NCBI GenBank assembly: GCA_965202585.1 | Contig: OZ241829.1 | Span: forward strand, 15,190,001 to 15,254,000 | Reading direction: 5' to 3' | Length of the DNA stretch: 64,000 nt | DNA from: Thalia democratica | Lineage: Eukaryota | Part shown: one piece after another, positions 3,613 to 63,300 of the stretch | Position numbering within the stretch: the first letter of the stretch is position 1 | Layout: each line of letters starts with the position of its first letter | The notes under the pieces: generated by a model | What the model saw: only the letters and a program-made list of their open reading frames with translations | Databases searched by the model: none | What the model was told of the DNA's origin: nothing | Translations under genes and position numbers: made by a program

Positions 3613-3630
3613 AATGTTTTTAAAAACACT

Positions 3631-4260
3631 GGTATTTATGCAGTTGAACTTACTCTGAAGACTTCTGTGCCAGCCTTCTGTGCCAGCCTTCTAGAGCATT
3701 GTTAGTTCGATGCTCTCCTGACAGTGTTTGAAGGTACACATTCCATAATGAAATAGGGAATAAGGGCTGACAGTTGCTTCCAGAAACTCCCACCAAGGTA
3801 TCTTCAAAATATGCAAAAAGAGGCAGAGTTCTTTAATCAAACTGATTAGATTGCCTCATCATCTTCAGGGACAAACGCCAATGCACTCATTTGCCTAATT
3901 GAGTGGGCAAAATCTCCATTCTCCTTTTCATATGGTTGCTTTAAGCTGAGTTCTATTACTTAACAATATATGAACAGAGTGAAGTAAAAGAAACAGCCTT
4001 CAGCAATACTATTGATGTTTTCATAAAATATATTAATGACAGCCCTTTCAAAATCAGTGTGCCATTCAAAAGGTCTTAAGACTTACATTATCAAGTAGTG
4101 CATTAATCATAGTCCTATATGTAGCTTCCCTTTTATTAGGTAACAAACAATACACTAAGGGAACTACTGAACCGTAGCATTTACCTTGTATGGTATACAG
4201 CTGGGGAAAAAGGCTTCCAGAATACGTAACTGAAAAGATTTCTCGGTCAAAATCAAACTA
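3631..4260 (-). mobile_element. Decayed MULE/Mutator transposase remnant
   Basis: Manual minus-strand translation gives FPQLYTIQGKCYGSVVPLVYCLLPNK, TDFERAVINIF..EGCFFYF, QMSALAFVP, AYFEDT and PISLWNVYLQTLSGEHRTNNALEGWHR, all MULE transposase motifs. Stops and frameshifts present. Confidence 0.8.
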
Positions 4261-4545
4261 AAAATTGTCTTCTTTATAATTTTTCGCACACTGATCATTG
4301 TTAATCAAGTGTTGTGCAATCACAGAAATTTTTTTTTGCAGATTTTCAACTGAAGGCTTATTTTGGTGATGGAATTTGGACTTCCTTGCTTTTTTTGCCA
4401 TAAACCTGGTTATTTTAAAACCTGGTTGTTTTGTTTATATGTTTTTACCTGTTTTGTTCACCTTGATAATTTAAATTGACAACAAGTAACATAGTTTTTA
4501 TAGTATTGTTTGACTCAAATTCACTCTTTTTTACTGTTGCAGTTA

Positions 4546-4860
4546 TTAAATTATAAAAACAAAAAGTTTAAGATAAATAAAAATCAACAAACCCAGAAAA
4601 CTGCATCCTGATTTGTCTATGCTTTCATCCATGTAAAAACTACAACTCTTTCCCACCATGTCAGTTATAATAAACTTTCTGAATATTGGTGCAAGAAAGT
4701 TAAGTACAATTTTTGTACATTTTGTTCGTTTTAAGGTAGCTGTGTCATGAACACTACCTATTTTCTTCATAACATCTACTAGGTGTGTGCCACTTTTCGA
4801 CATAATAGGTTTTAAGTTTGTAGAAAGGCTTAGAAATATTTTATTTCTAGTACCATGCAA
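4546..4860 (-). mobile_element. hAT-family transposase fragment (DUF4371/ZBED-type region)
   Basis: LKRTKCTKIVLNFLAP...SFYMDESIDKS..FLG resembles the hAT motif KCT.I..N.LAP...FS..IDESTD.S containing the first catalytic Asp. Confidence 0.6.
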
Positions 4861-5248
4861 ACATGGTACAAGACATTTTGCATATTTTCATTACTTTCTT
4901 CTCTCAAGTTTCTTGCACACAGCGTTCAGATGATCAAGTTTGACGTCAGGCGACTCAAGGAGCAGTCGGTTAGCGAATTGAGAATAACAGAACAGGACGC
5001 CTTCGTGACTGATAACGTCATGCTTGAATTTAGTCAACTTCTAACCGGAGTTCGAAAATTTTCAATTATTTTAACTGCTAGTTTTTGATGAGTTTTACTC
5101 ATATATTTTCAATTTTTCAACATTTTCTATTATTTAATAACGTTTTTAATATGTAAAAATCTTGATTATTTTTAGCTTAAAAAACAGTGCTTCTGCTGCA
5201 TTGTTATTTGGTAAAAATTTAATTTGTTAATTTTTTTTACAATCTTCT

Positions 5249-6179
5249 TTATTGATCAACTTTCTGGAAGATCATGTCGTTCAAAATTATTCCAGGAAAG
5301 ATTTTAAATTTTGATATCTTTGATACTCAACATTTAAAATACAAAACTAATTTAAGTATTGTCAAAAGTTGATCCTGTAAAAACTTACTTGTTGATAAAT
5401 AAAATGGTTAACTTGCATCTTCTACACCTTTTCAAATTTATTATTTTTGAAAAACTCTTCTTATATGTGCTCGGGTTCGCGAACAACGTCAACCAATTCG
5501 AATGAAGTTTCAGTGATCCGTTGCGGAAAAAGTTTTTTAAAAATTTACTAAAGAGGCCTTAAAAAACAGAAAATATGAGATCTTAAAATTTAGCAAATTA
5601 CAATGTAAGGATCATCAGCAGAGAAATCATCGAAAATGTACACCACTTTAGTGACATCTTTGCATACTTCTCTGATCTTCTCTTCTAGCCAGAACACTAA
5701 TTTCCAGATGGGCTTTTTCCGGTTCCAGTTGCCTACACTCAGGGCTACAATGTGGTGGTGTTTGTCCCATGGAAATAAATTATGTATAAAATTATAATTT
5801 TTTAATCTAGATGTTTATTTGTGGCAACAAACTAACCTGATTGTGGCAACAATGGCAACAGAGTATCGTAGTAGAGACATTTTTTCGTTATTGTATAAAG
5901 CATTTTTTCGCCGTCCTCATGCTTTAAGGCTCTTTTTATACGCTGTTAATTTATGATTTTGTTTAAAACACAATCTCTTGAATATTGTCAAGAATGAGCA
6001 TATCTCATACAAACTTATGTTAAGTTTACAGTTTAAGAAATACCTGAGTATATTCATTTACAGGGATATAAGCGAATTGCAGCAGGTCTCTAACAAGAGT
6101 TCTTCTTTGTTTCAAATGTGGTTTTGGCGGGCAGCTCGTTTTGCAAACGGCTCTAACTGCAAATCCGAATGCAGAAGAC
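5249..6179. repeat. Repeat X, copy 1; direct copy at 50887-51817
   Basis: attgatcaactttctggaagatcatgtcgttcaaaatta ... ccgaatgcagaagac is colinear in both places. Confidence 0.9.
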
Positions 6180-6448
6180 CTGTATCCTTTTTATTTCGAG
6201 TGTTATAGCAATCAAATTATTATTAAAAAAAAGAATTACAAAAAGTAACCTCAGTATTAGGTCTTCATTCCTAGCTGCTTAGCGTACAATTCTATCCCCT
6301 TCCTTCTGATGTTTTTCAGCGGTTTCACAACGGTTTAAAACGGGAGAGATTCTGTTTCGTGTTCTGATTATTTTTCAGTATTTTTTTACTCTTGTTTACT
6401 TAACTTAAATTTACATCAATAAGTTTAAGATATTGTTTACCAACTGAA

Positions 6449-6594
6449 ATACTAGTTTCCATAAAACGAACAGTTCTAAGCAACAAACCTGTTGCTAGGC
6501 AGCAGTTGGTTTTAAGATCACAGTCACCGATTGACGACAGCATTTTTTTGTATATTATGCAGGCCATTTCCCTTCTGATGTCCCAGGAGTTTAT
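6449..6594. repeat. Repeat Y, copy 1; direct copy at 53124-53283
   Basis: atactagttt(c/t)cataaaacgaacagttctaagcaacaaacc ... cccttctgatgtccc(a)gagtttatg is shared. Confidence 0.85.
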
Positions 6595-6830
6595 GATCAG
6601 AGTTGATCAGAGTTTTGCATCTCCTAGAGGAATAGAAGAACAGTTCTTCAGAGTTTCCTCTACCCCCGTGTTTAAGACTTTACCATTTCTGATTTTTCCT
6701 CAGGGTTTACTCCCGAAGCCTTTGCTTAGCCAAAAGCAACCACAAGGCAGTGGTGGTCGGCAAAGGTTTTACAGAGCTGATGCTAAATCAGCTCCAACCC
6801 CAAGGGGAGATCATGAAAGTTCTTCAGGGA
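6595..6830 (-). mobile_element. RTE-type LINE 5' UTR fragment (copy of 56158-56382)
   Basis: Near-identical to 56158-56382, which runs on into an RTE endonuclease ORF. Contains gggagtaaaccctgaggaaaaatc on the minus strand. Confidence 0.6.
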
Positions 6831-6851
6831 TCTTCTGTGTCATCTTTGTGA

Positions 6852-7777
6852 TCATCTTTTGAAAACCGTAATTTTGTTTCCTTTTACCATTCCAATAGAA
6901 TCAGGAGAGTCTTCGTCTAATATTTCCTTATCATTCAATAGAAAACGAACACTATTTTTTTCAACATCTTTTGTGTTGCAGTAGTTCTCAAATAAGCTTT
7001 TAAATTGAGCGTGTTTAAATACTTCATAGCATAATCGTCCATTGTCTAATTCTAATTTTCTCACACCTTCATCAACAACTTCATTAAAAATATCAGATGT
7101 TTTACAAGGTGCATCAGAAGTAGACGATTGTGAAAAGTGATTATCACTTTTGTAAGTAATAAGATAATCAAATTCGTCATCTTCAACAAGAGCATCGTTA
7201 CAAATGAGTTCAGAACGATAGTGTTCTTCATCATACAGCCTTTTTATAACTTCAAACTCGTTTCATTTTTCATTCAAAAAGATCTCGGGGTGTCATGCTC
7301 AAAGAATTCTGTTTCGTTGATAACAAAAGAAAATTTCTCTCGTTCAAGTCCTTTAGCCTCACAATAGTCCTGTATTAATCTTCTTAACTTAGTGTCATCA
7401 TTAATTTTGTAACTATGCGATCCGTCATCAAGAATAGTTTTGCTTAGTCCCTCATCAACGTAAGTGTGGAAAATATCATCAGTATTATCGAGTTTATCCG
7501 AAGTAGTTGTTGAAGGCTGTGAGTCAGTTTCTGTATTATCAAGTTTATCCGAACGACTTGCTGAAGGTTGTGAGTCAGTTTCATCGACATTACTTGATGC
7601 AGCTTCTATTTCCATGTTTTCTTTCTTCTTTGAATTTTTTCTCCAAACATCTAGACCATTCATTTTTTTCCATTCTTCAAAGAATGATCTCGGTCGAGCA
7701 GTGAAGTGCTTTTTTTTCCGACGATACGGATTTAAAAATTCAAATGCCTCAAGTTCTTCAAGGAAATTAAAATTCAT
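6852..7777 (-). pseudogene. Tandem SUMO-like-domain protein (Rad60/Esc2/NIP45-like architecture), copy A
   Basis: SLD1 YKINDDTKLRRLIQDYCEAKGLEREKFSFVINETEFFEHDTPRSF; SLD2 KSLFENYCNTKDVEKNSVRFLLNDKEILDEDSPDSIGMVKGNKITVF. Premature TGA at 7274-7276 and a 1-nt deletion near 7260 relative to copy B. Confidence 0.75.
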
Positions 7778-7829
7778 ATCTATGCTAATTAACTTATTAG
7801 TTTTTTTATTCAAATAGAATCAAACAATA

Positions 7830-10340
7830 AAACCATAAAGTTTACTATTATTAATAACCATAAAACCATATTATACTTTTAGTCTTAAAAGGCAAATTTT
7901 TAATGATGAGTATATTTTTGTTAGAAAACTTTACCTAGTTTCGTCAAACTTTGATCATATTTTTATGACATTTCCAAGGTAACAAAGTCAACGTTGTCAT
8001 TTCGATCTAAGAGCTTAAAAATTTGATCTTAAATGAAAATTTTACACTGATTGTAAACTCAACATAAGTTAATGTATGAAAACAGACTATGTACTACATC
8101 GTAATTATATTAGTACCAAAAACTTTCGTTTAAAAGTATCTGGTGTTTAAAACTATATTTTAAAGCCTCAAATATTATTAGGATTTGAAAAAAAAGTTTT
8201 AACCTCTCTCTTAAGCAGTAAGTTCGCCTCTATCCTTCATTTGATCTTTTATATGCATTGGTGAATTCACTCGCTTTAGTTAAAATTTACTTATAAATAC
8301 AGTTACTAACGAGCAACATTCACATGTTTTTGTTTTTGTGCACTTCATATTCAGTTTTAAACAGTTGTTTGAGAGATTGAAATATGAATTTTGTATTTTA
8401 TAGAAGAAACAGTTTTATATGTATCTCTTGTGACCCATGTACTGTTTTGTGTTGTTTTACATTCAGCCCGATTTTTAAGCTGATAAAATCAGTACTAGCT
8501 GTAGACTACAATATATTTCGCAGTTTAGTATAAAAATGAAATAAACAAGCATTAAGTGCTAAGACTACAGAATTAATTTTTTATAACACCGAAAGTAAAA
8601 AAGATTTTTCATATCCAGCTTTCGTCATTTTGTGAATATTTTTATACTAAGTTATCTTCATTAACAATTTTTTATTCAAGTGTATTCATCAATAGTTTTG
8701 GTAACACTTGTATCCTCGTCAAAATTTCAGCAAGCATCGACTTGAAGATTATCATTCATGTTCTTGGGAGCCATTTTTTGCTTGTATTTTTTTTTATAAG
8801 TTGTTTGTCAACAGATACGTCTTTAAGTTTGAAGTTTGCTGATAACGGTTGGTAGTTTTTCTCTTTTAGCAGTCCTACTTTTTTATTTTTCAACTTTTAT
8901 GTTAAGTTACAGTTCAGTCACTGTACTTCATTGATGTGAAGACTATTTTATCAGTTGATTAACTAGCTTTATCTACCTTTTTTTTTTATTGTAGCCTGTT
9001 GCTTAAACCTGCATTCCCTTACTAATCTGTATCATATGTTAGGAAGTACTAGTCAAAACATGTGCTGTTTTTTTATATATAATGATAATGTGATGTTATA
9101 GCCAGCATGCACAGGAAGTGGTATTCCATATTTAGCAGTCACCTCAGATAAATGAGATCACGTAAACCGTAGAAAAATCTTCTGCCTCTAAACTTCATCT
9201 AAATCAGTTCTACAAGTTGCTTGCAATACATCAAAATCTTGGCAGTGTATAGGCTCGCCGCGTTGGTACGTGTGCCATCTACTGCTCCGCGTGAAAGCTA
9301 ACATCTTAGAGAAGGCCTCATTAATGAGACCCCCCGTATAGATTCCACTACCAAGATAGACAAATTTTCTTTTTAAGAAAGTCATCTTGGACATGTGCAA
9401 AAAATAAGGTTCTTCATCCGTCTTTGCTCCGATTGTAACATTCATCCCAAAGCGTTTTCTCACCAGCCGTTTAAAGATGTTGAATTTAAACCAACCCCTT
9501 GCGGATTCATTAACAATAACAATAATGTCGTCCCCATAGATAGCAAGGGAAAAATACTCCTTGAACATCTCATAGGTGAGATGCTTACTCACCGCTTCCT
9601 TATAAGCTAATCTAGCAGTGGTATTGTTAATGGCAATATTTATGATTGAATTGTCGGGGGCAGTACCTGGTTGGCCTGAAATGTGGCCAGATGGCAATTG
9701 ACAAAGGACGTTGTTAACAAGACATAAGGGTTGCCGGAGTGCAGTAAAAAACCCGTTGCGAAGTAAATCATCTTCCGGCTTCCAATTAGGGTCAAAACGC
9801 CGATACAGCGTATTATAAAGATATGAAAAATTGTTCCTTCACAGTAATGTCGAATACCTTATAGTCAGCGTCAAATCCATAATGTCCATTCCGGGTTAAA
9901 TCTTTATAGAGATAGTTCCACTCAATAGATTGCGGGACTACGCCAATTGGGTGGTGGGACAGAGTTTCCGCCAAGAGGTTATGAAGGGCGCCGTTATACC
10001 TACGACCAACAATAACACCGTCAACAGGACAAGCACAAAATATGCGGGGTTTCCCAACTTTCTCAATAGGTCTGGCCTCATCTTTAAGGCAAGCAGTAGC
10101 TATCATCACTGTGCGTCGCTCGGCCTTACATTCGTTAATAAAATGCGAAATCTGAAATAAATATGTATATTTCTTTAGGTTTTCCATTTGTGGATTTAAA
10201 TATTATACTTGAAAACTATTTTTTTTTAATAGAAATCTATTTTTTATTTTTAGTTATACTGGAAACAAACTTTACTACAACAAGGACACAAGTATCCCTG
10301 TAGTATTTCGCTCTTGTCCTTTTTCTTATTTCTCAATTTT
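7830..10340. repeat. Repeat module W, copy A (7830-9096 and 10163-10340, interrupted by the RdRp insert); other copies 50140-50760, 57420-58850, 60280-60570, 61720-62760
   Basis: Shared blocks such as gtaacaaagtcaacgttgtcatttcgatct, gttcgcctctatcctt, cagcaagcatcgacttgaaga and cttaggttttccatttgtggatttaaa. Confidence 0.85.
9097..10162 (-). pseudogene. Endogenous viral element: picorna-like (+ssRNA, Picornavirales-type) RNA-dependent RNA polymerase fragment
   Basis: Motif F LKDEARPIEKVGKPRIF, PIGVVPQSIEW, motif A FDADYKVFD, motif B SGQPGTAPDNS, motif C YGDD and motif E TFLKRKF, in correct order. ORFs 9813-10187 and 9188-9697 are joined by one frameshift near 9816-9839, bridged by YNTLYRRFDPNWKPEDDLLRNGFFTALRQPLCLVNNVLCQL. 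GC is visibly higher than the flanks. Confidence 0.93.
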
Positions 10341-10974: not shown

Positions 10975-11190
10975 TAATTAAACCGTAAGTTTGCTAATCT
11001 TAATATCACTAAAGCGTTGAGCAAAACATTTCCCATTTGATATTGCCACTTATTTTTTGTATAATTCATAACAGAAAAATCACGCTCAATCCTGGCGTTG
11101 CTAAAAGGTTTTTTTTAAAACTTAACCATCAACTCACACAATTCTTTGTACTTTTTTAAACCATCTTTCCAGAATTTTACGGTTGTAAAA
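10975..11190 (-). mobile_element. hAT transposase C-terminal dimerisation-domain remnant (copies 59270-59490 and partial 63940-64000)
   Basis: KFWKDGLKKYKELCELM...SNARIERDFSVMNYTKNKWQYQMGNVLLNAL matches the hAT consensus FW...SNA..ER.FS.MN..K.K.RN....LL.AL. Confidence 0.75.
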
Positions 11191-12739
11191 CTTCCTATTA
11201 AAATATAGCATTTGTTTTTGACAATTTGTTTCTATAAAAAAACTTTTAATAGTAATTTAATTCAAGCTAGTAAAATAAGTTTAAATGCTGATATTTAATT
11301 CATAACAAATTTTAAAGTATTAGGGTAACATTAATTTATGGTTTAACAATTTAATCTTGTTATAATTGTTTGAAAAGTAGTAAGCAAGCATTTAAAAGCA
11401 TATGTTATTTATATGAAACACAAAAGTTCTAACTAATTTGTTTGGCTGACAACACGAAATTGATTATTTTTTAGATAAAAACACGATTTTTTTTGATCTG
11501 ACAAGTTATACATAACTTTGAAATTTTTAGGTTCAATAAGTTTGTTAATATCCGTTGACTCAAGGCCTGTAATAAAACATATAATGTTTTGCAAAACAAT
11601 GTATTTGTTTTCATTAAAAAAAGCTTAAAAAAAAGCAACTATTTTGATCAACAACTTTGTTTGATGCTATTAAGTCTAGATTCTGTCGCATCCTGTTATC
11701 ATTTTTACTTAAAGGTTGTATTGTGTAACTTCTATACAGTTGTATGGCCCAATTTGGGACATCGAAGTTTTCAGTGCTGTCGGTTTTTTTCCACATAGTT
11801 TTATCATAGAACATAACTGATTTGCATGTATGCATAATTGTATCTATCTTAAATTCTGTGAATTTTGAATAAGAATTACAGAAGTTGATTATAGTAGATG
11901 TTTTCTTTATATTGTTGGATTAAAGTTTTTGATGTCAAAGTACACGAAGCGTTTGTCGCTTTTGTTGCTGATTTTTTTGAACCAATCTACTACTTCGTCA
12001 AGCAAATTCAATTGATATAATACGATCTAAAATAAAAAACACGTTGAATTTTATTGACAAATTTAATAAAAGACAAATATAATGCAATAAAAATTTGTAA
12101 TTACTTTCAATTAAACCGAGTTGTATGTAGTCAAAATAAAAAATAATAATCTTCATGAAAAGAATCTTCGTCAACAATTTTTTAAATAACCGCAATGTCC
12201 ACAAAACCACTTTAAATTCTCTTAAAGATTTAAGAATGCAATCATTGTAAGGAATGCAATTAAATGGAACTACTTTTTACAACCTCACATCTCAACTAAA
12301 AAAAATAAAGTTTGAGAAATAAGAACGTTAGTTAAAAACAACTATTGATGTTCTATATTTTAGTTCCGACAGACAGCTATACAAAATTAAGAAAAGCTTA
12401 CTAACCTACTTTACCTTTTCGTTCTTCTTTTTCCTACGCCACGCAGGATCATCTCTTGTACATTTGTAGCATTAAAAATTATTTACGACTGAAATTAAAA
12501 ATTACGTAGAACTTGATCAATATGTAATGTTTAAAAATGTAATGCTTGCTCAAAAATTTCATTTATTTTGCTTAGTAGTAGTTGAAATTTATTAGTTAAC
12601 CTCCGTGCTTTATTAGGCTTGTTGCAATTTCTAAGCGTTTTGAATTAAGGTGTTCGCAGTTAGTCTCGACACGTATGTTTGTTAAAGACAGAAAAAAGCA
12701 AGATATAAATTGTTCTGCAACCTAAGCAAATTAATAAAA

Positions 12740-13020
12740 GTTCATTCTCATCTGTATTATTTTTTCTTAAACATATTATTCTATATTTTTTTCCAAACTT
12801 CTTTATTGTGCAATACTGATTTATATGCATTTAAGGTTATTTTTATTTCCTGCTCGCTTATTTTTTTACTTTCGTTTGCAAAAGCTAAAGCATTTTTTAG
12901 TAATTTTTCTGATATTGATGGGTAAAATTCTACAATGTCATACTTCATGAACTTGTACTTGTATGTACTAAGTGTTTTGTACCTATTAATAACTTCTTGA
13001 GTGTTTCGCAATTGGAGATA
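12740..13020 (-). mobile_element. Penelope-like element reverse transcriptase fragment (copy 61370-61610)
   Basis: RNTQEVIN...KYDIVEFYPSISEKLLKNALAFA...I...EIKI...KSVL...WKK matches the PLE RT motif FDI.EFYPSI. Confidence 0.75.
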
Positions 13021-13439
13021 TTTGATTAATTTTCTTCAAATAGTATTGATTCTATCAACTCTACATTTGCTAATTTGATTTATATCTTATGTTGTTTGCT
13101 AATATAATTATAATATATATATATAAAAAATATTGACATAATATAATTATTTTCTTCTTGATTTATCAAGCAGTATAAGATGCTGAATAAGTGTGGGTAT
13201 CAGTAAATTATTTGTATTTGTAGATCATTCAACTTCATATCTTATTTTTACTAAAAAGAACGGAATTTTACCGAATACAGACATGATAAAAACTCAACAT
13301 GGTCTTTATAGCTTATATCATAGTTGTTTGAGTCTCATTTTTTGATGAAGCACAACATTACCATCACGTTAAACTGTTATTTTGTTCTTTGACTGAAAAA
13401 CGTTTTCAAGTTTTAGTAAAAGCTATTTTAATACTGAAT

Positions 13440-14386
13440 TATTATTATTAAGTTTATTGTCCAACAAAGGACCTAGGCATTAAAACCTAGGTCACTTAAA
13501 CTGAAAGACACTAAAAAGAAAAAAACAAATTACAGTGATTAAATAAACATAAACATAAAACTTATACAAAGTACAAACTGAATAAATTAAAACTTTCACA
13601 ATTCAACGATTCCAAAGTCACCAATCTCCAATTATACGTTCCAAAGCAACAAATACCTGTAACAAGCATTTCTGTCAAATCTTCAGAACCTGTCTTCATC
13701 ACGCAGAACACTGATCTGAGCTACTATTTGCCACTCGTTATGACGGCAAATTCAGTCAAAAATCACTTCAAAAATGTGGCAGCAACAGTTCACAAATCTA
13801 GCTTAGAAATCAACTGAGTATCCAATAATTTCAAAATCTAAAGCCCAAAGCACATTAACAACAGCCCTTCCGAAAAAATCAAAGTTGAAAAGTACCTAAA
13901 ATCTATAAGGGGAAGGTGTAGCTTACAGATTAAACTACCAATAAACTACATACCACACACCAAATCAATGGCTAAAGAGATGAACAAAACTAATCACTTA
14001 TAAATTTTACTGGTAAATATTTTATTTAAATCAAATCTTTTTAAGTTTAATCGAAAATCTTTAAGATTTTTGCACGATACTAGTTCATTTGGAAGTTTGT
14101 TCCACATTTTTACCGAACGATAGAAAAAAGATTCGTGCCAACCAACATAGTTGAAATGATATTTGCATGTATATTTTCTATTATTACCTCTAAGTGAGTA
14201 ATTGTTTTCATAAGGTTTAAAGAAAGTTTGAGAATCAATAGTAGTTTCATTGTTAATCAGTTTAAAAAAAGTAATTAGATCAAATTCAAGTCTTCTGTAT
14301 TCTAAAGTTTTTATATTAAGCTGTTTTAAGAACTTTAAAACAATGAACGACAATAAAAAATAACTATGGTTATAATAAGAATATTG
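13440..14386 (-). mobile_element. 5'-truncated CR1/L2-clade LINE: ORF2 C-terminus, 3' UTR and TAA tail
   Basis: LNIKTLEYRRLEFDLI..FK...SLRGN...FFYRSVKMWNKLP.ELVSCKNLKDF is a typical CR1-group ORF2 end. The 3' end has a gacctagg..cctaggtc stem and an aataataataa tail at ~13440-13495. Confidence 0.8.
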
Positions 14387-14522
14387 AATCATAATGCAGT
14401 CGTGAGGCAATAGACAAAGCTAGACCATAATATAACAAAATACACATAAAGAGCTAAAATTTAAAGAATCTACAAAACTTATACAAAAGCGAGCGCATCA
14501 CAGAAGTAGCCACAGCCATGAA

Positions 14523-15056
14523 CTAAGACGAAATGTTATGTTTGAATTCAACCTTAGCCATGATTTTCGTAAACAACGTACGCTTCTCATTAGGCATGTC
14601 AGGTATCTCTCTTTTATGTTTTAATTTCCTACAATTATTCTCCATAACGAAATCGTAAGCAGCTAAGGCGTAACACAAATCACCTGCAGTCTTATAATTG
14701 ATAAAGATGTCATAATCTTTTAGCAAACAATCAATCATCATCAGGTTGATTCTCTTTTTTCGTCTGAAGTTTAGAATTAATTGACCCTTATGCCACTCGT
14801 CCTCTAACATGGCAAGTTCGCCATCACAATCCGATCTGTCCAAGTGCCTTAAAAACTCTTTCTTCTTAAGTAAAAGACGATCCTCGTCAGTCCACCTCCT
14901 ACTGTCCCCCGCGCCCGCGAGCCCCAGGTCTGTAGTTTGCTTAACTTTCCAGTTGACTTTATCTAATATAATTCTTCTTCCGTTATGGTTAATCACCGAA
15001 GAAGCGGAATCCAGCAACTTGCCAGTTACTAGCATACCACCTTCCTTATCCGGCAA
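14523..15056 (-). CDS. Orphan 177-aa ORF in a GC-richer island, copy 1 (candidate virus-derived)
   Basis: ORF track. The frame continues upstream past one in-frame TAG (SRLDEKVLLPTVIHIQDDQSVASLAAEMLLMGE*LGFDILPDKE). No introns; no family recognised. Confidence 0.5.
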   Translation of the reverse strand: MPDKEGGMLVTGKLLDSASSVINHNGRRIILDKVNWKVKQTTDLGLAGAGDSRRWTDEDRLLLKKKEFLRHLDRSDCDGELAMLEDEWHKGQLILNFRRKKRINLMMIDCLLKDYDIFINYKTAGDLCYALAAYDFVMENNCRKLKHKREIPDMPNEKRTLFTKIMAKVEFKHNISS

Positions 15057-15898
15057 TATATCAAAACCTAGCTACTCACCCATCAATAACATCTCTGCGG
15101 CCAGCGAAGCTACACTCTGATCATCTTGAATGTGTATGACAGTAGGGAGAAGGACCTTCTCATCTAACCTTGAATTATGACTTAAATCCTGAATTGTTTG
15201 AAAATGATTTGAAAATTACCTTTTGTTTTCATAAACTTATAAATGTCATTTAAAGATACATTTTAATGCATGTATCATTAAAAGTTCTGCTGCGTTGATA
15301 ATAGAAATGGAACAATCATACTACACACGTTTAATTAAGATACTTTTAAAGTAAACTCCTATAACTTTTACATACTTATCATTCAAATTCAACAAATGCA
15401 AACCAAATACTTTGTTGGACAACACCTAATTTTACTATCTCTCGTTTTGCAGGCTGTCTGAGACTCAATTTTGGCTTACTAAAATAATAACTTATAATTA
15501 ACCTCGTATAAGATTAGCATAAATGGAGCTATATATTGTTTTTTATTTTTATTTCATTGATGACAACTATTTTAATTAAGAAAAGCTTACTAACCTACTT
15601 TACCTTTTCGTTCTTCTTTTTCCTACGCCACGCAGGATCATCTCTTGTACATTTGTAGCATTAAAAATTATTTACGACTGAAATTAAAAATTACGTAGAA
15701 CTTGATCAATATGTAATGTTTAAAAATGTAATGCTTGCTCAAAAATTTCATTTATTTTGCTTAATCATAATGCAGTCGTGAGGCAATAGACAAAGCTAGA
15801 CCATAATATAACAAAATACACATAAAGAGCTAAAATTTAAAGAATCTACAAAACTTATACAAAAGCGAGCGCATCACAGAAGTAGCCACAGCCATGAA

Positions 15899-20200: not shown

Positions 20201-20312
20201 TCGGTTATCGAGTTGTACGACACTTGGAAGTTTAACGTCACTGTCAAAGACATAGTATTTTTATCCAAATAAAGCATCACTTACTCAATTTTTGTAATCT
20301 GATAAGCTACAT

Positions 20313-47520: not shown

Positions 47521-47859
47521 CACCAACTCTAAGGCTTGGATCATAAATTGATCATTCTTGTGTAATTTAACTCAAAATTTAATTTCAAAACTGTGCTACT
47601 TTTTATTTTGAGTTGCCCATGTTTTGATTTAACTTATTAAGTGTTAGGATGCAATCTTTTTTTGATTAAATAAGTGTAACATAGCACTAAATTAAATTTA
47701 TGAATGTATACCTATAGTATGTTTTTATAGGTATGTTTCTCTATTTAATGAAACACAAATGAAATACATATGCATTTCTATCTCTTCAAATTTTACAAAT
47801 TTAGATAAGTAAGATTTATAAGTGCACAATTTATTTTAACATTAAAATTTATAATCCTG

Positions 47860-51962: not shown

Positions 51963-52739
51963 TTAACACTTTTTTATCAAATCAAGACCCTCACTCCCGT
52001 CCTCCTTTGCATCGATTAAACTAGCGGCCTCCTCGTTGGACAATTTGATGTGATAACGCTTAACAGAGAAACTATCAATCATGGTTTCCACTTTTTTAAC
52101 TCTGGCAAAATACGCTCTGATTATCGCGGCACCAAGTGCATCTACCTGCTCTTTTTTATGATGATGATTCAGTCTAGGAATAGGAAGATTCTCGTTAATG
52201 TAGATTCTTGTTTCCTCGGAACTTTTTCTTTCTCTCAACATTCTATCTAACTTGAAGGCTGCCTCACTCAAAACTGTTGCGATTAATCGAAGAACCGAAG
52301 AAGTTCCTAGTCCATACTTACCCAGTTTTTCAATACGGTCCTTCTTTTGAATCTCTACCATTCCATTTCTCCATACAAACTTGCAATTTAACGTAGTAGC
52401 ATCTCTCGCAAAGTCTTTTGCATCTTGAATGCTCAATGCATATCCAATAACATTACCATAAACAGGGGGTTTAATCACGGCTACCGTCGCTCTTCCTACC
52501 GTTTGTAACTTGCCTATTTCGGCGTCTTCAAAGAACTTTCCAATTACCTTAACAAAATCAGTATCTTTTTTTGCTTTTTCAATACCAAGAAAATACTTAC
52601 ATCCCATCAATAAGTCCTCGTTTCCGCTCATAAAGATTTTAGAGTCATCAAAACCGTTTATCACGGCCTTAGCAGTTTTAAGCAACGGCAAACTATCTAT
52701 TCTTTTATCGCTTTTAAACTTTGAGAAAAAATAAGTCAA
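51963..52739 (-). CDS. Orphan ORF, 258 aa from TTG; frame stays open ~45 codons further upstream to ~52874 (candidate virus-derived)
   Basis: ORF track plus manual upstream translation (GRRLSADQLFYGGKISSVSFFTGFNAEVGDLELEEAWKVEDNINKL). Intronless, GC above background, no in-frame ATG at the 5' end. Confidence 0.6.
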   Translation of the reverse strand: MTYFFSKFKSDKRIDSLPLLKTAKAVINGFDDSKIFMSGNEDLLMGCKYFLGIEKAKKDTDFVKVIGKFFEDAEIGKLQTVGRATVAVIKPPVYGNVIGYALSIQDAKDFARDATTLNCKFVWRNGMVEIQKKDRIEKLGKYGLGTSSVLRLIATVLSEAAFKLDRMLRERKSSEETRIYINENLPIPRLNHHHKKEQVDALGAAIIRAYFARVKKVETMIDSFSVKRYHIKLSNEEAASLIDAKEDGSEGLDLIKKC

Positions 52740-55259
52740 TTTATTAATGTTATCTTCAACCTTCCACGCCTCTTCTAATTCTAGATCGCCGACTTCTGCG
52801 TTAAATCCGGTAAAGAAACTAACACTGGAAATCTTACCACCATAAAAAAGCTGATCCGCTGACAGTCGACGACCTCACTTTTTGTCTGAATCATTCTAAT
52901 GATATTAAACATAGTTGGATCATTAGTATTATTCTCCATAATCAAATTTAAACAAAATGTTCTGGCAATTAATCACCGTTCTTTTTGTCTTCTTTGATCA
53001 AATTTAAATAAATTATTCTAACAATCAATTTATTATCTTTAACTCTTTAGTCAAATTCAAATGCGAAGCTATCTAACAATTATTTTATTTGGCTCCAATG
53101 AATACTTTTTTAAATCCCAATTTATACTAGTTTTCATAAAACGAACAGTTCTAAGCAACAAACCAGGCTAGCTACAAAGTTGCTAGGCAGCAGTTTGTTT
53201 TAAGATCACAGTCACCGATTGACGACTGCATTATTTCATATATTATGCAGCCCATTTCCCTTCTGATGTCCCACGAGTTTATGTACTTAGCCGTGCACAG
53301 CGACCAACTCGAAAATTTACAACTGCTGTTATTTTCTCCCATTGAAAGTATTCTAGTCAATTTGTTCGAGGTATGAAGCTGTAGCAAATATCCAGGGACA
53401 CAGCGTCCTTTAACCACATAAATGCCTCCTAACTTTCGTCGGTTGTAGCAAAATAACTTGTTCTATACTCAAAATTTTCAGCTTTCATCTCTGCTAATCT
53501 AAATTTAAGTTCAGTTGGATGTTTAATATTTTGATAGTTAATAAGACAGATAAAACTATCAATTTAGTATCTACACTAAATGAATTGATAATTTCTAGCA
53601 CTTCGAGAACTAATGCCCGGATAAATGCTTGTAAATACATTACTTATGTTGTCATAAGTTTTTTTTCTTAATAATGGCATATACTTCCATGTTTATTTTT
53701 ATTAAATTTAAATAATTCTACACTTTCTAACATTTTCTAACCCCTAGCACCACCAGCTGCTACTATGGCATCATTATAAACGGTTTAAGTCTTTCTGGGT
53801 TCTATTAGACACCTGGTACCTTTCTCGTGATAATTTGTTCAAGAATTACATCTATCTGTTTTAGTCTTGTTTAAGTTTAACAACACATGTCCATATTCGT
53901 AATCCTTACTTGGAGTTAAGTTGTTAAAGCAAAGAAGGTGTAAATTTTGATAACATTTTCCGCAGCCTTTCTAAAATATTTATTTTTTATGATGATTTAT
54001 TATTATGTAAATTAAATGAATATTGTTTTTCTATATAGACCATTTGATGCTTTCTGTACATTAAACTGACTTAGTTACATCATACTCATCTAAACCACAC
54101 GAAAAACAAAATTTTGGTGCTGGAAACTTTTAAGTTACTAGAAAAATTTTTTTAAATCCTTTTTTTTTTGGTTACCGTGCAGATATGTTATAACACATGT
54201 TGCAGTTCTTCACAATTTTCAGACATAAGCATCCTACAGCGACTGGGCGACATTTGACAAAAAAAGATGCTGCGATAATATTTAGATTATTATTAAACTC
54301 GATTTTAGTTTAAATTATTGATTGTCTAGTTCAAACGCTCTCTTGAAATCGTCTTCTGTATTCCAAAGTTTTTTTGATGCAAAAACAATTCAACATGGTT
54401 GTCGTTGCTGTTTTTATTAATTAAGTTATTTCTCCACCATTTTTTGATGAAGTGCATAACCTGCACTTTGCATGTGTGGATTACGCACATTATTACGTTA
54501 AACCGTTCTTTTTGTTCTCTAAATACAAAATATTTCCAATACTGCAAAAGCTATTCCAATACTGATCTATTTAGAACCGATCTAAAAATTATCCTTTGCC
54601 TTCATAAATTTATTAATTCATTTTAAGATACACTTTGATGCTTGTATCTTTTAAATAAGGTGCTGATCCGTTCAAAATAGGAACAACCACACTCCACACG
54701 TTTAATTTAGCTAACTATAACATTTGGTAATATAAGGGAATTGCTTTTTTTAGAAACAATATGATAAAGTTACTTACAAAGAAAATAAGTGCTAAAACTT
54801 TAATATACTTAACGCTTTTTATGTCCCTTTTAATTAAGTTGAGCTATGGCCTGTAGTTGTATTGTTCAACTTTCTGGGAGATATGTTGCTCACAACTATT
54901 CCCGAATAGTTTTAGATTTTTGTATCTTTGCTGATGGAATTTCTTTTATTTTAGTAAAACTTGCGTTTAAAACTTCTAAACTCTGGGATAAAACTAAAAC
55001 AAATTCAACTGTTATCATCCACACGTAGGACTTGGTAAGTCTAAGAGAATGTTGGTTTACAGTTGTATTAGCGCAATGATGTCGTTCATTATGACGTAGT
55101 CGATGCTATCGTTTACATCCAGCAATTCAGCTATTTTTTCTGTATGTCAGGATATTTAAAAAAAAAAGTTTAAGAAAAATATAAGGCATTTAGTATTTAT
55201 TTACCTTTATTTTTTTTTTTGTCAATGTTATTAATGATGGAACCTAAATTTTCCATCAT

Positions 55260-56382
55260 GGTTAAGATTTTTACCTTTCGAAGACTATTTCCGTCTTTTA
55301 CATAAGAACCGTCAACTTTTACACCGTACTTTACACGCTTTTGCAGTTGTACACTTAAATATCATCCGGAAGTTGTTTTGATTGAAACAAAAATAGCTAC
55401 ATGTTGTAAGAGTGTATTCTTGACAGCAAAACCAACACCATATTCTTTACGTTCTTCAACAGACTTACCAAACCAGAAGAAAGTAAAATTTTTTTCTTTA
55501 ATTCAGCCTTGACCAGCAAGGCGCGTTTCTTGAAAAGCTGCAATATCAACTTTAAGACGAAGAAGTTTGTTATTTATAATAGCAGTTTTTCTTGCATCAT
55601 TTATGTTTTCGGGGTCCATACCAGTAGTCATGGTACGAACGTTCCAGCTTCCCAGTTTAAGAGTGGGTCTCTTTTTACGTTTATGTTTGTCAGGTGACAT
55701 AGTTTCAGTTTACTTTTCACTTAAAGCTATCCCCATTCACCCAATGAGGAAGGTAAACTGTGGCGGAACAACACCTTATTGGCTGAGGGCTGCTCAGCTT
55801 AAGGCAGGCGGTGGTTGTTCAGTGGAACTAAAAAATTCCTCCTACCGACGAATACGACCCCTGGCGCCCATCCTTTCGCCAAACAGGATTAGGCTTATCA
55901 CCGGTAACTGCCGTATTCCGTGTTGTGTCTTCGCGAAAAACCTGCGAAGCTGGAGTAAACCTCTCCAAGCACAAAGCCAGGGCATAACATTGAGATTCCA
56001 GCTGTTGCCCATGCAGCAGGATCTCACTCTCCACAGTGAGAAGAGCTCAGCGAAACAGCAAAGCTGATACAGCCAAGATTCATCATTGTCGCAGGAGCTG
56101 CCGGAATGACATTGAATACAAAGTCAGACCGCCTACGTGGCTCCGACTACGGCTTTTTGATCAGAGTTTTGCATCTCCTAGAGGAATAGAAGTACAGTTC
56201 TTCGGAGTTTCCTTTACTCCCGTGTTTAAGACTTTACCATTTCTGATTTTATTTCTGATTACTCCCGAAGCCTTTGCTTAGCCAAAAGCAACCACAAGGC
56301 AGTGGTGGTCGGCAAAGGTTTTACAGAGCTGATGCTAAATCAGCTCCAACCCCAAGGTGAGATCATGAAAGTTCTTCAGGGA
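55260..56382 (-). mobile_element. 5' part of an RTE-clade LINE (5' UTR plus start of the APE endonuclease), 3' truncated
   Basis: LKLGSWNVRTM...DARKTAIIN..L.RLKVDIAAFQETRL, then KEKNFTFFWFGK...ERKEYGVGFAVKNTLL. The UTR contains ggagagtgagatcctgctgcatgggcaacagc. Confidence 0.85.
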
Positions 56383-56445
56383 TCTTCTGTGTCATCTTTG
56401 TGATCTTCTGTGTCATCTTTGTGATCTTCTGTGTCATCTTTGTGA

Positions 56446-57370
56446 TCATCTTTTGAAAACCGTAATTTTGTTTCCTTTTACCATTCCAATAGAATCGGGA
56501 GAGTCTTCGTCTAATATTTCCTTATCATTCAATAGAAAACGAACACTATTTCTTTCAACATCTTTTGTGTTGCAGTAGTTCTCAAATAAGCTTTTAAATT
56601 GAGCGTGTTTAAATACTTCATAGCATAATCGTCCATTGTCTAATTCTAATTTCTCACACCTTCATCAACAACTTCATTAAAAATATCAGATGTTTTACAA
56701 GGTGCATCAGAAGTAGACGATTGTGAAAAGTGATTATCACTTTTGTAAGTAATAAGATAATCAAATTCGTCATCTTCAACAAGAGTATCGTTACAAATGA
56801 GTTCAGAACGATTGTGTTCTTCATCATACAGCCTTTTTATAACTTCAAACTCGTCTCCATTTTTCATCCCAAAAGATCTCGGGGTGTCATGCTCAAAGAA
56901 TTCTGTTTCGTTGATAACAAAAGCAAATTTCTCTCGTTCAAGTCCTTTAGCCTCACGATAGTCCTGTATTAATCTTCTTAACTTAGTGTCGACATTAATT
57001 TTGTAACTATGCGATCCGTCATCAAGAATAGTTTTGCTTAGTCCCTCATCAACGTAAGTGTGGAAAATATCATCAGTATTATCGAGTTTATTCGAAGTAG
57101 TTGTTGAAGGCTGTGAGTCAGTTTCTGTATTATCAAGTTTATCCGAACGACTTGCTGAAGGTTGTGAGTCAGTTTCATCGACATTACTTGATGCAGCTTC
57201 TATTTCCATGTTTTCTTTCTTCTTTGAATTTTTTCTCCAAACATCTAGACCATTCATTTTTTCCATTCTTCAAAGAATGATCTCGGTCGAGCAGTGAAGT
57301 GCTTTTTTTTCCGACGATACGGATTTAAAAATTCAAATGCCTCAAGTTCTTCAAGAAATTTAAAATTCAT
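56446..57370 (-). pseudogene. Tandem SUMO-like-domain protein, copy B
   Basis: Paralog of 6852-7777. It has 1-nt deletions at ~57257-57262 (T6 vs T7) and ~56650 (T3 vs T4), but is intact where copy A is broken (PRSFGMKNGDEFEV). Confidence 0.75.
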
Positions 57371-60300
57371 ATCTATGCTAATTAACTCATAAGTTTTCTT
57401 AATCAAATAGAATCAAACAACAAAACCATAAAGTTTACTATTATTAATAATCATAAAACCATATTATACTTTTAGTCTTAAAATGCAAATTTTTAATGAT
57501 GAATATATTATTGTTGGAAAACTTTACCTAGTTTCGTAAAACTTTGATCATATTTTTATGACATTTTCAAGGTAACAAAGTCAACGTTGTCATTTTGATC
57601 TAAAAGCTTAAAAATTTGATCTTGAATGAAAATTTTATACTGATTGTAAACTTAACATAAGTTAATATGTAAGAAAACAGACTATGTACTACATCGTAAT
57701 TATATTAGTACCAAAAACTTTCGTTTAAAAGTATCTGGTGTTTAAAACTATATTTTAAAGCCTTAAATATTATTAGGATTTGAAAAAAAGTTTTAACCTC
57801 TCTCTTAAGTAGTAAGTTCGCCTCTATCCTTCGTTTATCTTTTATATGCATTGGTGAATTCACTCGCTTTAGTTAAAATTTAGTTATAAATACAGTTACT
57901 AACCAGCAACATTCACATGTTTTGTTTTTGTGCACTTCAAAGTTAGTTTTAAACAGTTGTTTGAGAGATTGAAATATGAATTTTGTATTTTATAGAAGAA
58001 ACAGTTTTATATGTATCTCTTGTGACCCATGTACTGTTTTATGTTGTATTATATTCAGCCCGATTTTTAAGCTGATAAAATCAGTATTAGCTATATACTA
58101 CAATATGTTTCGCAGTTTAGTATAAAAATGAAATAAACAAGCATAAAGTGCGAAGACAACAAAATTCTTTTTTTTTTATAATACCGAATGTAAAATAACT
58201 TTTTCATATCCAACTTCCGTCATTTTTGTGAATATTTTTATACTAAGTTATCTTCGTTAACTATTTATTATTCAAGTTTCTTCATCAATATATTTAGTAA
58301 CACTTGTATCCTCGTCAAAATTTCAGCAAGCATCGACTTGAAGATTATCATTCATGTTCTTGGAGCCATGTTCTTGCTTGTGATTTTTTTATAAGCTTTT
58401 TAATCAACAGATACGTCTTAAGTTTGAAGTTTGGTTATAACGTTTGGTAATTTATCTCTTTTAGCAGTCTTACTTTTTTATTCAACTTTATTTTATAACA
58501 AGTTGCAGTTCAGTCACTGTACTTTGATGTGGAGACTTTTTCATCAATTGATCAACTAGCCTTATTTAAGTTTTTTGTAAGCCTGTTGCTTAAACCTACA
58601 CTCCCTTACTTATCTGTATCATATGTAAGGAAGTATTAGTCAAAGCATGTGCTGTTTTTTATATAATGATAAAATGAATTTTATATCTTAGGTTTCCCAT
58701 TTGTTGATTTAATTATTTTATACTTGACAACTGCTTTTTTTAAAATTTATTTCTTAATTTACTGGAAACAAACTTAACTACAACTAGAACACAAGTATCC
58801 CTGTAGTATTTCCCTCTTTTTTCTTATTTTTAAATCTTTAAACACACATTATTCCATTATTGTTAATTTATAGATTTATTTTTTTATTATACTCAAAGCT
58901 TCTTAAGTAGTTTTCTCACCATCATTATTTTCCATTCATTATTTTCGTATAGCGATGCTCGACGTTTCAATACAATGTCCAACCATCAACCTGTGGCAAC
59001 TCTCAAACTTCGAAACAGCTTCCTTTATTTTAAATCCTTGTCTTGTAGCTCTTGCTGTCTTAAAGCTTTTTCTTTTCAAAATGTAATTACAATCTGAAAA
59101 CACAAAACACAATAACTTTCACCAGACAGTACAGAACAGGTTATCTTTCTTCTTTCCAGTTTTAATTACAGCTAGTGGAACATTGGTGGAATCCATCAAC
59201 GAACAGACAATTAGTTTCCTTATTTGAGTTTGGTAAGGCGTTGATTTTAACGATTAAATATGGTGAAATTAATTAAACCATAAGTTTGCTAATCTTAATA
59301 TCATTAGAGCGTTGAGCAAAACATTTCCCATTTGGTATTGTCACTTCTTTTTTGTATAATTCATAACTGAAAAATCACGCTCAATCCTGGCGTTGCTGAA
59401 AGGGATTGTTTTCATTTTTAGCATCAACTCACACAATTCCTTGTATTTTTTTAAACCATCTTTCCAGAATTTTACGGTTGTAAAACATCCTATTAAGACA
59501 TAGCATTTATTTTTGACAAATTGTTTCTATAAAACAGTTTTAAAAGTAATTAATCTAAACTAGTAAAATAAGTTTAAATGCTGATATTAAATTCATAACA
59601 AATTTAAAGTATCAGGGTAACTTTAATTTATGGTTTAACAACTTAATCTTGTTATCGTTGCTTTAAAAGTAGTAAGCAAGCATTTAGAAATATATATTAT
59701 TTATATGAAGAACAAAAATTAACTAATTTGTTTGGCTAACAACACGTATTTGATTATTTTTTTAGATATAAACACAATTTTTTTTGATCTGACAAGTTGT
59801 ACATAACTTTGACATTTTTATGTTTAAGAAATTTGTTAATATCCGTTGACTCAAGGCCTGTAATGAAACATATTATGTTTTGGAAAACCATTTTTTTTGT
59901 TTTCGTTGAAAAAAGCTTAAGAAATAAGCAACTAGCTTGATCAACAACTTTGTTTGATGCTATAAAATCTAGATTTTGTTGCATCCTCTTACCAATTTCA
60001 GTTAAAGGTTGTATTATGTAACTCCTATACAGTTGTATGGCCCAATTTGGGACATCAAAGTTTTCAGTGCTTTTAGTTTTTTTTCCACATAGTTTTACCA
60101 TAGAACATAACTGATTTGCATGTATGCATACTTGTATCTATCTTAAATTCTGTGAATTTTGAATAAGAATAACAGAAGTTGATTATAGTAGATGTTTTCT
60201 TTTTGTGGTTGGATTAAAGTTTTTGATGTCAAAGTACACAAAACCTTCGTCGCTTTTGTTGCTGATTTTAATTTGCTGATAACGGTTGGTAATTTCTGAA

Positions 60301-63300
60301 TGTTAGCAGTCTTACTTTTTTTTCAACTTTTCTTTATAACGAGCTGCAGTTTAGTCTATTTACTTCATTTACGTGAAGACTTTTTTATCAACCGAATAGC
60401 TATTCTCAATTACGTTTTTTGTAAGCCTGTTGCTTGAACCTGCATTCCCTTACTAGTCTGTATCATATGTAAGGAAGTACTAGTCAAATCATTTGCTGTT
60501 TTTTATATAATGATAATATGATGTATATTTTCTTAGGTTTTCCATTTGTGGATTTAAATTCTATACTTGATGACTGCGTTTGTTTTTTAAGATTTATTAT
60601 CAATTGATATAATTTATTATTATCAATTGATATAACACGATCTAAAATATAAAACACATTGAATTTTATTGACAAATTTAATGAAAGACAATAATATGAT
60701 GCAATAAAAACTTGTAGATATTTTTTATTAAACCGAGTTGTATGTAGTCAAAATAAAAAATAATAATCTTCATGAAAATAATCTTCGTCAACATTTTTTT
60801 AAATAACCGCAACGTCCACAAAACAACTTTGAATTCTCTAAAGATTTGAATGGAGAATCATTCTAAGGAAGGCAATTAAAATGGAACCACTTTTTACAAT
60901 CCACATCCCAACTAAAAAATAAAGGTTGAGTAGTTGATCATTAAGAACGTTAGTTAAAAACAACTATTGATGTTCTATATTTTAGTTCGGACAGACAGCT
61001 ATACAAAATTAAGAAAAGCTTACTAACCTACTTTACCTTTTGTTCTTCTTTTTTTTACCCCACGCAGGGTCATCTTTTTTACATTTGTAGCATAAAAGTT
61101 TATTTACGACTGAAATTAGAAATTACGTAGAACTTGATCAATATGTAATGTTTAACAATGTAATACTTTCTCAAAAGTTTTATTTATTTCGCTTAGTAGT
61201 AGTTTAAATTCCATTCGTTAACCTCCGTGCTTTATTAGGCTTGTTGCAATTTCTAAGCGTTTTGAATTAAGGTGTTCGCAGTTAGTCTCGACACGTATGT
61301 TTGTTAAAGACAGGGAAAAGCAAGATATGTTCTGCAGCCTAAACAAACTAATAAAAGTTCATTCTCATCTGTATTATTTTTTCTTTTTACCCAGACTTCT
61401 TTATTGTGCAATACTGATTTATATGCATTTAAGATTATTTTTATTTCCTGCTCGCTTGTTTTTTTTACTTTCGTTTGCGAAAGCTAAAGCATTTTTTAGT
61501 AATTTTTCTGATATTGATGGGTAAAATTCTACAATGTCATACTTCATGTACTTGTACTTAGTATTTACTTAGTGTTTTGTACCTATTAAGAACTTGAGAA
61601 CTTCGCCATTGGAGATATTTAATTTATTTTCTTAAAATAGTATTGATTCTTTAACTATACATTTGCTAATTTGATCTATATCTTATGTTATTTGCTAATA
61701 CAATTATAATATATTGAAAAAAAAAATTTTAACCTCTTTCTTAAGCAGTAAGTTCGCCTCTATCCTTCAACTGATCTTTTATATGCATCGGTGAATTCAC
61801 TCGCTTTAGTTAAAATTTAGTTATAAATACAGTTACTAACCAGCAACATTCACATGTTTTGTTTTTGTGCACTTCAAAGTTAGTTTTAAACAGTTGTTTG
61901 AGAGATTGAAATATGAATTTTGTATTTTATAGAAGAAACAGTTTTATATGTATCTCTTGTGACCCATGTACTGTTTTATGTTGTATTATATTCAGCCCGA
62001 TTTTTAAGCTGATAAAATCAGTATTAGCTATATACTACAATATGTTTCGCAGTTTAGTATAAAAATGAAATAAACAAGCATTAAGTGCGAAGACAACAAA
62101 ATTCTTTTTTTATAATACCGAATGTAAAATAACTTTTTCATATCCAACTTCCGTCATTTTTTGAATATTTTTATACTAAGTTATCTTCGTTAACTATTTT
62201 TTATTCAAGTTTCTTCATCAATACTTTTGGTAACACTAGTATCCTCGTCAAAATTTCAGCAAGCATCGACTTGAAGATAATCATTTATGTTCTTGGAGCC
62301 ATGTTCTTGGTTGTGATATTTTTATAAGCTTTTTAATCAACAGATACGTCTCAAGTTTGAAGTTTTCTTATAACGATTGGTGATTTTTCCATTTTAGCAG
62401 TCTTGCTTTTTTATTTTACTTTTATTACAAGTTGCAGTTCAGTCACTGTACTTTGATGTTGATACTTTTTTATCAGTTGATTAAATAGCCTTATCTACGT
62501 TTTTTGTAAGCCTGTTGCTTAAACCTGCATTCTCTTACTTATCTGTATCATATGTAAGGAAGTATTAGTCAAAGCATGTGCTGTTTCTTAATATAATGAT
62601 AATATGATGTATATTTTCTTAGGTTTTCGATTTGTGGATTTAAATTTTATACTTGACAACTGTTTTTTATTTAACTGGAAATAAACTTAATTACAACTAG
62701 GACACAAGTATCCCTGTAGTATTTGCCTTTTTTTCTTATTTTTCTATCTTTAAACACACATATTTCCATCATTCTTAGTTTTTAAATGTAGTTTTTTAGT
62801 ATACTCAAAGCTTCTTAAGGAGTCTTCTCACCATCATTATCATCCACCCTACTTAAAACTATGTTGTTTTCTTTCTGAGGTCTTTCAATAAAATCAAGGT
62901 GTAAAATATTCTTTATTGACTTGAATTAATATCTTTTTTATTCAAGTAAAGTAATTCTCATTTTAACTATAAAATTTTACACTAGTAATTTTTCAAATTT
63001 ACTGTTCATAAATCGACCTGACTTATCCACTGAGCTCTTAAGCTTTTGGGATTTAATCAAGGACAAATACACATTCTGTAACTTTATAAGCTCTTTAAGA
63101 TAAGGTGATAACTTTTCTACTGCATCATTCAAGTTACAAAACTGTAAAACCCTTTTATTTATTAAGTTTATTCATAGGCTGAGTTTGTATTTAAAACTGA
63201 TAAAGTTATTTATTTTAGCAAAAATCAATATTTTTTTATCTTGTAAAGTTTTTTTTTAGCATTTAACCGTACAGAAAATGTTCTAGAAAAATAAATTGTG

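Follow-up and report, generated by a model that had tools for sequence, protein, structure and literature searches.

Duplicated modules with strand-polarised transposon and RNA-virus inserts in the Thalia democratica genome as candidate uni-strand piRNA clusters

A 64,000-nucleotide stretch of the Thalia democratica genome (contig OZ241829.1, here C5:15,190,001-15,254,000; called the window below, with positions counted from its first letter) carries remnants of transposons and RNA viruses that lie nearly all on the minus strand. Our analysis shows that this strand bias is real, that it is modular and that it extends beyond the window, following duplicated units in which a Kelch gene, an AT-rich non-coding leader and a tract dense in foreign pieces, which we call a trap, recur in this order. 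We propose, with a probability of about 0.6, that each such module is a uni-strand cluster of PIWI-interacting RNAs (piRNAs), which would be transcribed away from the Kelch gene and would give piRNAs antisense to the inserts. The locus also holds more viral content than was first noted.

Strand bias in the window

A sequence-only reading of this DNA had counted 15 independent minus-strand remnants, had put their chance at 2 x 0.5^15 and had named a spliced paralog pair as the sole plus-strand exception. Most of these remnants are real, and homology places on the minus strand the Mutator-like (MULE), hAT N-part, SUMO-like, RNA-dependent RNA polymerase (RdRp) and hAT dimerisation pieces, as well as CR1 (a CR1/L2-type 3' piece, 13438-14328), RTE (55397-56453), two pieces of Penelope-like elements (PLE) and three long open reading frames (ORFs). 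As a count of independent events, the number 15 does not stand. Positions -6012..9100 are duplicated at 35643..58685, so several trap pieces are present twice and the MULE and Mutator remnants form one group, and the SUMO-like and RTE remnants are a single fused insertion. Kelch (28095-29070) and UBL (16997-17284) do lie on the minus strand, and we rejected them as foreign remnants, both being host genes that are also found in an inverted duplicate at 104-120 kb. With remnants that are duplicated, fused or host-derived, the quoted chance is overstated. Neither is the spliced pair the only exception, since a plus-strand MULE-type element at 30670-33909 had been missed, and the bias, earlier taken as window-wide, is confined to the trap tracts at 3.6-16.6 kb and 46-82 kb.

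Once duplicates are collapsed and host genes left out, the window has 13 independent inserts, 12 of them on the minus strand (two-sided p=0.0034); this count takes in two ORF families whose strand comes from the ORF alone and excludes a Penelope-like ORF at 11.6 kb, for which two PLE queries gave no match at E 0.05. On the plus strand, none of 114 ORFs of at least 50 amino acids reached Pfam E<0.01, and among five longer ORFs one gave a weak Pfam match, to a host glycosyltransferase-like exon.

Taken alone, this p value is not significant across the ~12,500 such windows of the 802-Mb assembly (GC 28%), and for this reason DNA outside the window was examined. It can be argued that chance, together with selection of a striking window, explains the picture: tens of those windows would reach p 0.003, and matches to the element library described below, within the window alone, are 7 of 8 on one strand (p=0.07). 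The support for the bias stands nevertheless, because 39 of 41 trap matches outside the window are co-oriented, and the skew of unannotated DNA also follows the modules. The explanation by chance is already largely refuted, and we find it hardly credible.

Modules and their polarity

The architecture was derived from self-comparison of 464 kb plus further upstream stretches. At the border of leader and trap lies a conserved non-coding block of ~170 nucleotides, which has seven matches in the genome, all within C5:14.86-15.24 Mb. The three plus-strand matches lie in the window and mark two direct modules (A and B); each of the four on the minus strand marks an inverted module upstream, with the inverted traps at C5:14.82-15.09 Mb, and there are six modules in all. 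The block of module A occupies 2516..3203 in two tandem copies and that of module B 45300..45800, both on the plus strand, and we infer that it may be a promoter or a first exon. Kelch was located in five of the six modules and was not seen in the leftmost one; its positions rest on blastn and ORF lists, as the Kelch tblastn matched only itself. The trap units are 13-57 kb long, and three of the six contain RNA-virus pieces and two a copied host gene. As a separate observation, a plus-oriented tract at C5:14.938-14.956 Mb, left of a Kelch gene, has nine of nine matches co-oriented, which are partly duplicates; no conserved block was found in this tract, and it is possibly a seventh module, left uncounted. 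One plus-strand ORF recurs where three of the inverted traps begin, directly past the conserved block.

Since Pfam searches on stop-to-stop ORFs are too blunt for decayed transposons, a library of ~180 ORFs was built from the genome itself (long interspersed elements (LINEs), RTE, long terminal repeat (LTR) elements, PLE, MULE, hAT and others) and used with tblastn; an antisense ORF mislabelled as hAT was removed ahead of counting, and each trap was taken from its block outward to the next Kelch gene or leader. Within the six traps 47 of 49 transposon elements follow the module orientation, so that the strand is constant in each module and reverses together with it. The comparison of fragment orientation with the genome background, proposed in the sequence-only reading, favours the bias: eight 50-kb control windows gave 19 plus-strand and 18 minus-strand matches, with 25 of 37 on the majority strand of their own window. 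When matches were jointly collapsed by DNA similarity, 19 of 21 groups were co-oriented (p=2e-4), and the one mixed and the one opposite group are both Penelope pieces. Among the polarised groups are MULE, hAT, PLE, LINE and RTE, which differ in their insertion mechanisms. Inserts that are young or specific to one copy, namely the RdRp, reovirus-like, RTE and CR1 pieces, have the same polarity, which shows that several kinds of insert arrived after the duplication and that the polarity was kept.

One may suppose that the locus is a hotspot of insertion and recombination, where a few old pieces were locally duplicated and an insertion bias, due to nicking or replication-fork polarity, oriented the new ones, RNA being under no selection. 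It is true that tandem duplicates with 99% identity occur often (for example 64.1-70.8 kb against 70.8-77.6 kb), the most-copied groups are one hAT with 13 copies and one MULE with 8, and distant tracts have pieces in common. This supposition has to face the co-orientation of the 19 groups that persists after collapsing, the agreement in polarity of cut-and-paste and retro elements, and the reversal of polarity within ~100 kb exactly with module orientation, and we regard it as quite unlikely.

The composition of the traps is polarised as well. Their unannotated DNA has an AT skew of -0.11 (T-rich on the plus strand), and the sign is reversed in the inverted traps upstream. In the 50-kb controls the values lie between -0.015 and +0.029; among control pieces of 10 kb, single ones go as far as -0.156. 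Skews of host genes, taken at five loci, are inconsistent and allow no calibration of transcription direction. The AATAAA signal is, by raw counts, rarer on the presumed precursor strand in five of five tracts, with 57 on the plus and 128 on the minus strand in trap B; observed-to-expected ratios are 1.11 against 1.41 in trap B and 1.11 against 1.33 in a tract on C8 (C8:65.12-65.42 Mb).

The depletion of AATAAA on the plus strand of trap B would also suit a long plus-strand host transcript, a long non-coding RNA or an intron, that runs across each tract and from which sense inserts are purged through their disruptive splice and poly(A) signals, with no piRNAs involved. Such a transcript predicts the same polarity and its flip with the inverted modules, and the conserved block might serve as its first exon. 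It leaves without explanation the presence in the traps of the sole RdRP_1, the sole long reovirus-like and the phenuivirus-like inserts, and a bias that is near-complete and includes DNA transposons; antisense bias in introns is usually modest. We hold this alternative to be unlikely.

The opposite direction of transcription has also to be considered. In the modules where Kelch was located it shares the strand of the inserts, so the tracts might form an extended upstream part of the Kelch gene, transcribed on the insert strand and feeding a sense decoy or a small interfering RNA pathway. The leader shows no coding exons, and the 3' tail of CR1 together with the surplus of AATAAA on that strand would be expected to end such a transcript; we know of no precedent for this arrangement, and it seems to us very unlikely.

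Viral inserts

Two inserts in the window are integrated endogenous viral elements with defined junctions. The first, a picorna-like RdRp insert (9101..10163, minus strand), consists of two overlapping frames and has a 4-nucleotide ATGT overlap at its ends. Pfam RdRP_1 is matched over 9188-10202 on the minus strand (E 4e-16 and 7e-17), these being the only RdRP_1 matches in the genome, and the insert is missing from three paralogous empty sites. Its best PDB matches, 8iic and 8iib, appear in a paper on a dicistrovirus RdRP (PMC10436059).

The second insert (49107..49784, minus strand), which is open across its length, is the former 'orphan' ORF at 49.0-49.8 kb. It resembles a reovirus inner-capsid protein, matching VP3 of PDB 7xr2 (E 7.4e-6, 192 residues), an entry that we take to be from mud crab reovirus. 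It is flanked by an unusually long direct repeat of 125 nucleotides and 99% identity (48982-49106 and 49785-49909), and it is single-copy, besides an 81-nucleotide plus-strand piece at C5:14.698 Mb. In both samples compared it lies within one 765-nucleotide contig, with 0 and 2 differences.

A third viral piece belongs to a sister module: an ORF at C5:14.850 Mb, on the plus strand of the leftmost inverted module, resembles a phenuivirus nucleoprotein. A related ORF on C8 (E 3.5e-28) scores above the Tenui_N cut-off, and the six weak PDB profile matches are all to nucleoproteins. Searches for close relatives of the viral inserts found none, and an Atlas search with the phenuivirus-N-like ORF returned no usable match. 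Family searches of the genome with Bunya_RdRp, RdRP_4, DDE_Tnp_4, DDE_3 and GH6 gave no match, three of them being uninformative, as they were silent in controls too.

Candidate piRNA clusters

The genome encodes an intact Piwi gene, an ORF of 946 amino acids with a Piwi structure match at E 3.6e-223. This ORF matches best the structures of Piwi and Piwi-like protein 2 (E 4e-223 to 1e-215) and more weakly those of Siwi and 'Protein piwi' (E 8e-159 and 3e-147), a ranking that may be taken as a weak hint against an insect host. A second locus carries what we presume to be PIWI-type motifs. The idea of a transposon and virus archive, put forward in the sequence-only reading, gains in this way from the PIWI-clade genes, from the second RNA-virus insert in the window and the third in the sister module, and from the flip of the bias with the inverted modules; its trap transcript, the strand of this transcript and its piRNA output are predictions from the sequence.

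We suggest that a long RNA would start in the leader or the conserved block and run outward, head-to-head with the Kelch gene, and that it would be cut into piRNAs antisense to the co-oriented pieces of transposons, RNA viruses and host retrocopies. Inserts may be captured by LINE reverse transcription, with template jumping to account for the fusion of a retrocopy to RTE; selection would then retain antisense inserts, and pieces may be exchanged between clusters.

Several points weigh against piRNA clusters of this kind. The outer borders of the traps were set after the data had been seen, and duplication is so extensive, in the modules as in the contents of the traps, that raw counts make the inserts look more independent than they are. 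In the leaders two of six matches are opposite, with the other four co-oriented. The library of ~180 ORFs is partial, and non-coding repeats were left unoriented, such as a high-copy 147-nucleotide repeat at 51818-51965 and repeats at 21.9-22.6, 34.1-34.3, 35.2-35.7 and 38.1 kb. Of the tracts, just trap B and the one on C8 retain a clear AATAAA contrast once counts are normalised, and control 8 has a similar one (0.98 against 1.22). On C8 the collapsed groups, ten in number, are 6 minus, 1 plus and 3 mixed. The scan around other viral and orphan loci covered 28 kb in addition to small loci; it gave 12 transposon matches, of which 9 are co-oriented, and no match at 11 of the 19 loci. No such tract accompanies the 3-kb mononegaviral L insert at C1:23.09 Mb, which lies beside a calpain-like gene, so that some viral inserts of the genome are not in traps.

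We may go further and suggest, as a rather speculative extension, a portable cassette, in which Kelch, leader and the ~170-nucleotide block would start a one-way piRNA trap wherever they are duplicated and in either orientation, the traps being loaded by LINE template jumping and distant clusters swapping pieces. The locus would then be a heritable store of antiviral memory in a non-arthropod, and its licensing element could be identified. The six natural copies, which come in both orientations and differ in age, share a short conserved block where leader and trap meet; this provides a defined and testable element for asking how piRNA sources are licensed and whether arthropods are alone in having virus-derived piRNA memory. 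The single-copy viral inserts permit unambiguous mapping of reads. Even if no piRNAs are produced here, the locus clearly exemplifies the capture of RNA-virus genes in one strand orientation.

Comparison with known systems

In Drosophila, clusters chosen by transposon strand bias gave strand-biased piRNAs (PMC10643416), and the present tracts resemble flamenco and the flam-like unistrand clusters in being long one-strand transposon tracts detectable from sequence (PMC10643416). They differ in that the bias of flam-like clusters is driven by Gypsy LTR elements over tracts of 227-1,085 kb (PMC10643416), whereas here MULE, hAT, PLE, LINE and RTE are found in duplicated units of 13-57 kb. There is no LTR group among the 21 groups of the six traps, despite 15 LTR ORFs in the library, and the Gypsy character of flamenco is thus not seen.

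Viral inserts of Aedes are enriched in clusters and yield antisense piRNAs, and reovirus inserts are known in Ae. aegypti (PMC5497376). As in those virus-rich clusters, partial ORFs of several RNA viruses, both duplicated and unique, are gathered here in few regions; the Aedes regions are LTR-rich and their piRNAs were measured (PMC5497376), whereas here LINE and PLE neighbours, read from the DNA alone, suggest another route of capture.

Mammalian piRNA clusters offer a host retrocopy in reversed orientation and cluster copies duplicated with a neighbouring gene, both similar to our modules; they differ in an orientation bias that is slight and non-significant, in a regulatory role that is doubted and in viral inserts, none of which were seen in the sections at hand (PMC6461890). 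Virus-matching small RNAs outside arthropods are known from the dog whelk (PMC6085071), where the evidence is of RNA and here of a genomic locus; the sections at hand of PMC6085071 and PMC6128900 describe no comparable genomic locus. No such module appears, by titles and the beginnings of abstracts, in the literature on viral elements and piRNA clusters in tunicates or marine invertebrates, nor in that on invertebrate clusters with retrocopies and segmental duplication, for which supplementary cluster lists could bear on novelty.

Other features of the window

Unless stated otherwise, the following pieces are on the minus strand. Trap A begins with a MULE transposase fragment (3611..4214), of the same group as the MULE (Mutator) fragment at 47546..48227, and with an old hAT transposase N-part (4463..5074) common to the inverted upstream modules. 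A 5' untranslated piece of a young RTE-type LINE follows (6603..6857, 96-98% identical to dispersed copies), and joined to the RTE 5' end is a processed retrocopy of a spliced host SUMO-like family (6858..7865), in which four exon blocks, split by introns in the genes at C1:20.03-20.10 Mb, are contiguous and which directly abuts the 5' tandem repeat of RTE. At 55397..57458 an RTE 5' part (1.06 kb, 98% identical to dispersed copies) is fused to a second SUMO-like retrocopy. A LINE reverse transcriptase that jumps between templates would leave such a junction, as suggested by the behaviour of R2 and RTE elements. A further minus-strand ORF of trap B, at 81.0-81.8 kb in window numbering, shares ~70% identity with a family arranged in tandem at C5:10.27-10.32 Mb and is likely a second host-derived piece.

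Beyond the RdRp insert, trap A contains a hAT dimerisation-domain fragment (11049..11228, with a copy at 59344-59526), a Penelope-like reverse transcriptase fragment (12720..13087, with a copy at 61337-61683), and the young CR1/L2-type 3' fragment (13438..14328), which has a (TAA)n tail and is 98% identical to two upstream copies. A Penelope-like fragment at 46827..47050 is found in module B only, and the remainder of trap B in the window (57459..64000) consists of local duplicates of trap material, the tract continuing to ~82 kb.

For two orphan ORF families in the traps, searches returned neither a family nor a structure nor a named relative, and their AlphaFold models (mean pLDDT 28 and 42) are too poor for use. 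One is represented at 14387..16591 by a fragment of an intronless ORF, present twice in tandem and virus-like by composition only; related intronless ORFs of 540 and 567 amino acids, 69% identical to each other, at C10:7.603-7.610 Mb are its source family and have no known relative. The other, also intronless (51966..53115), agrees in some of its pieces with C5:13.975 Mb at 100% identity and with C8:65.13 Mb at 98.6%, and its 14 matches on C8 are all on the minus strand, the majority strand of the tract there. Taken together, the copies at C10:7.61, C5:13.975 and C8:65.13 Mb match orphan pieces with 98-100% identity.

Between the traps lies a host-gene zone (16587..30677) with UBL, the plus-strand spliced paralog pair and Kelch, the inverted duplicate of which is at 104-120 kb. 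The Kelch gene of module B (28095..29769) has two overlapping frames and a conserved upstream piece, and between it and the leader stands the exceptional plus-strand MULE-type element of 3.2 kb (30670..33909). The AT-rich non-coding leader of module B (34000..45300) is 65-75% identical to those of the inverted modules, and at its far end some 40-nucleotide windows are ~90% identical between copies; it carries a PLE piece at 39.2-40.4 kb. No codon periodicity and no coding exons were seen in it, by which a coding leader was rejected, and a giant transposon carrying the module was rejected as well, no transposase or capsid ORF having been seen in the leader.

Other tracts and viral loci

The tract at C8:65.12-65.42 Mb is a separate polarised one, with 26 minus-strand and 5 plus-strand matches. 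It holds tandem orphan ORFs and further virus-like ORFs, and in 100 kb of it GGTAAG occurs 0 times on the plus and 24 times on the minus strand. At C6:67.116-67.131 Mb a rhabdovirus nucleocapsid piece (Rhabdo_ncap, E 8e-26) adjoins phenuivirus-N-like pieces, together with LINE and MULE fragments, all on the plus strand, and this locus is probably another cluster. Mononegaviral L-gene inserts lie at C1:23.095-23.099 Mb and C7:31.965-31.968 Mb, the latter directly after a co-oriented Penelope element, and further phenuivirus-N-like inserts are present at C8:63.72, C8:56.34, C8:30.15 and C6:45.24 Mb.

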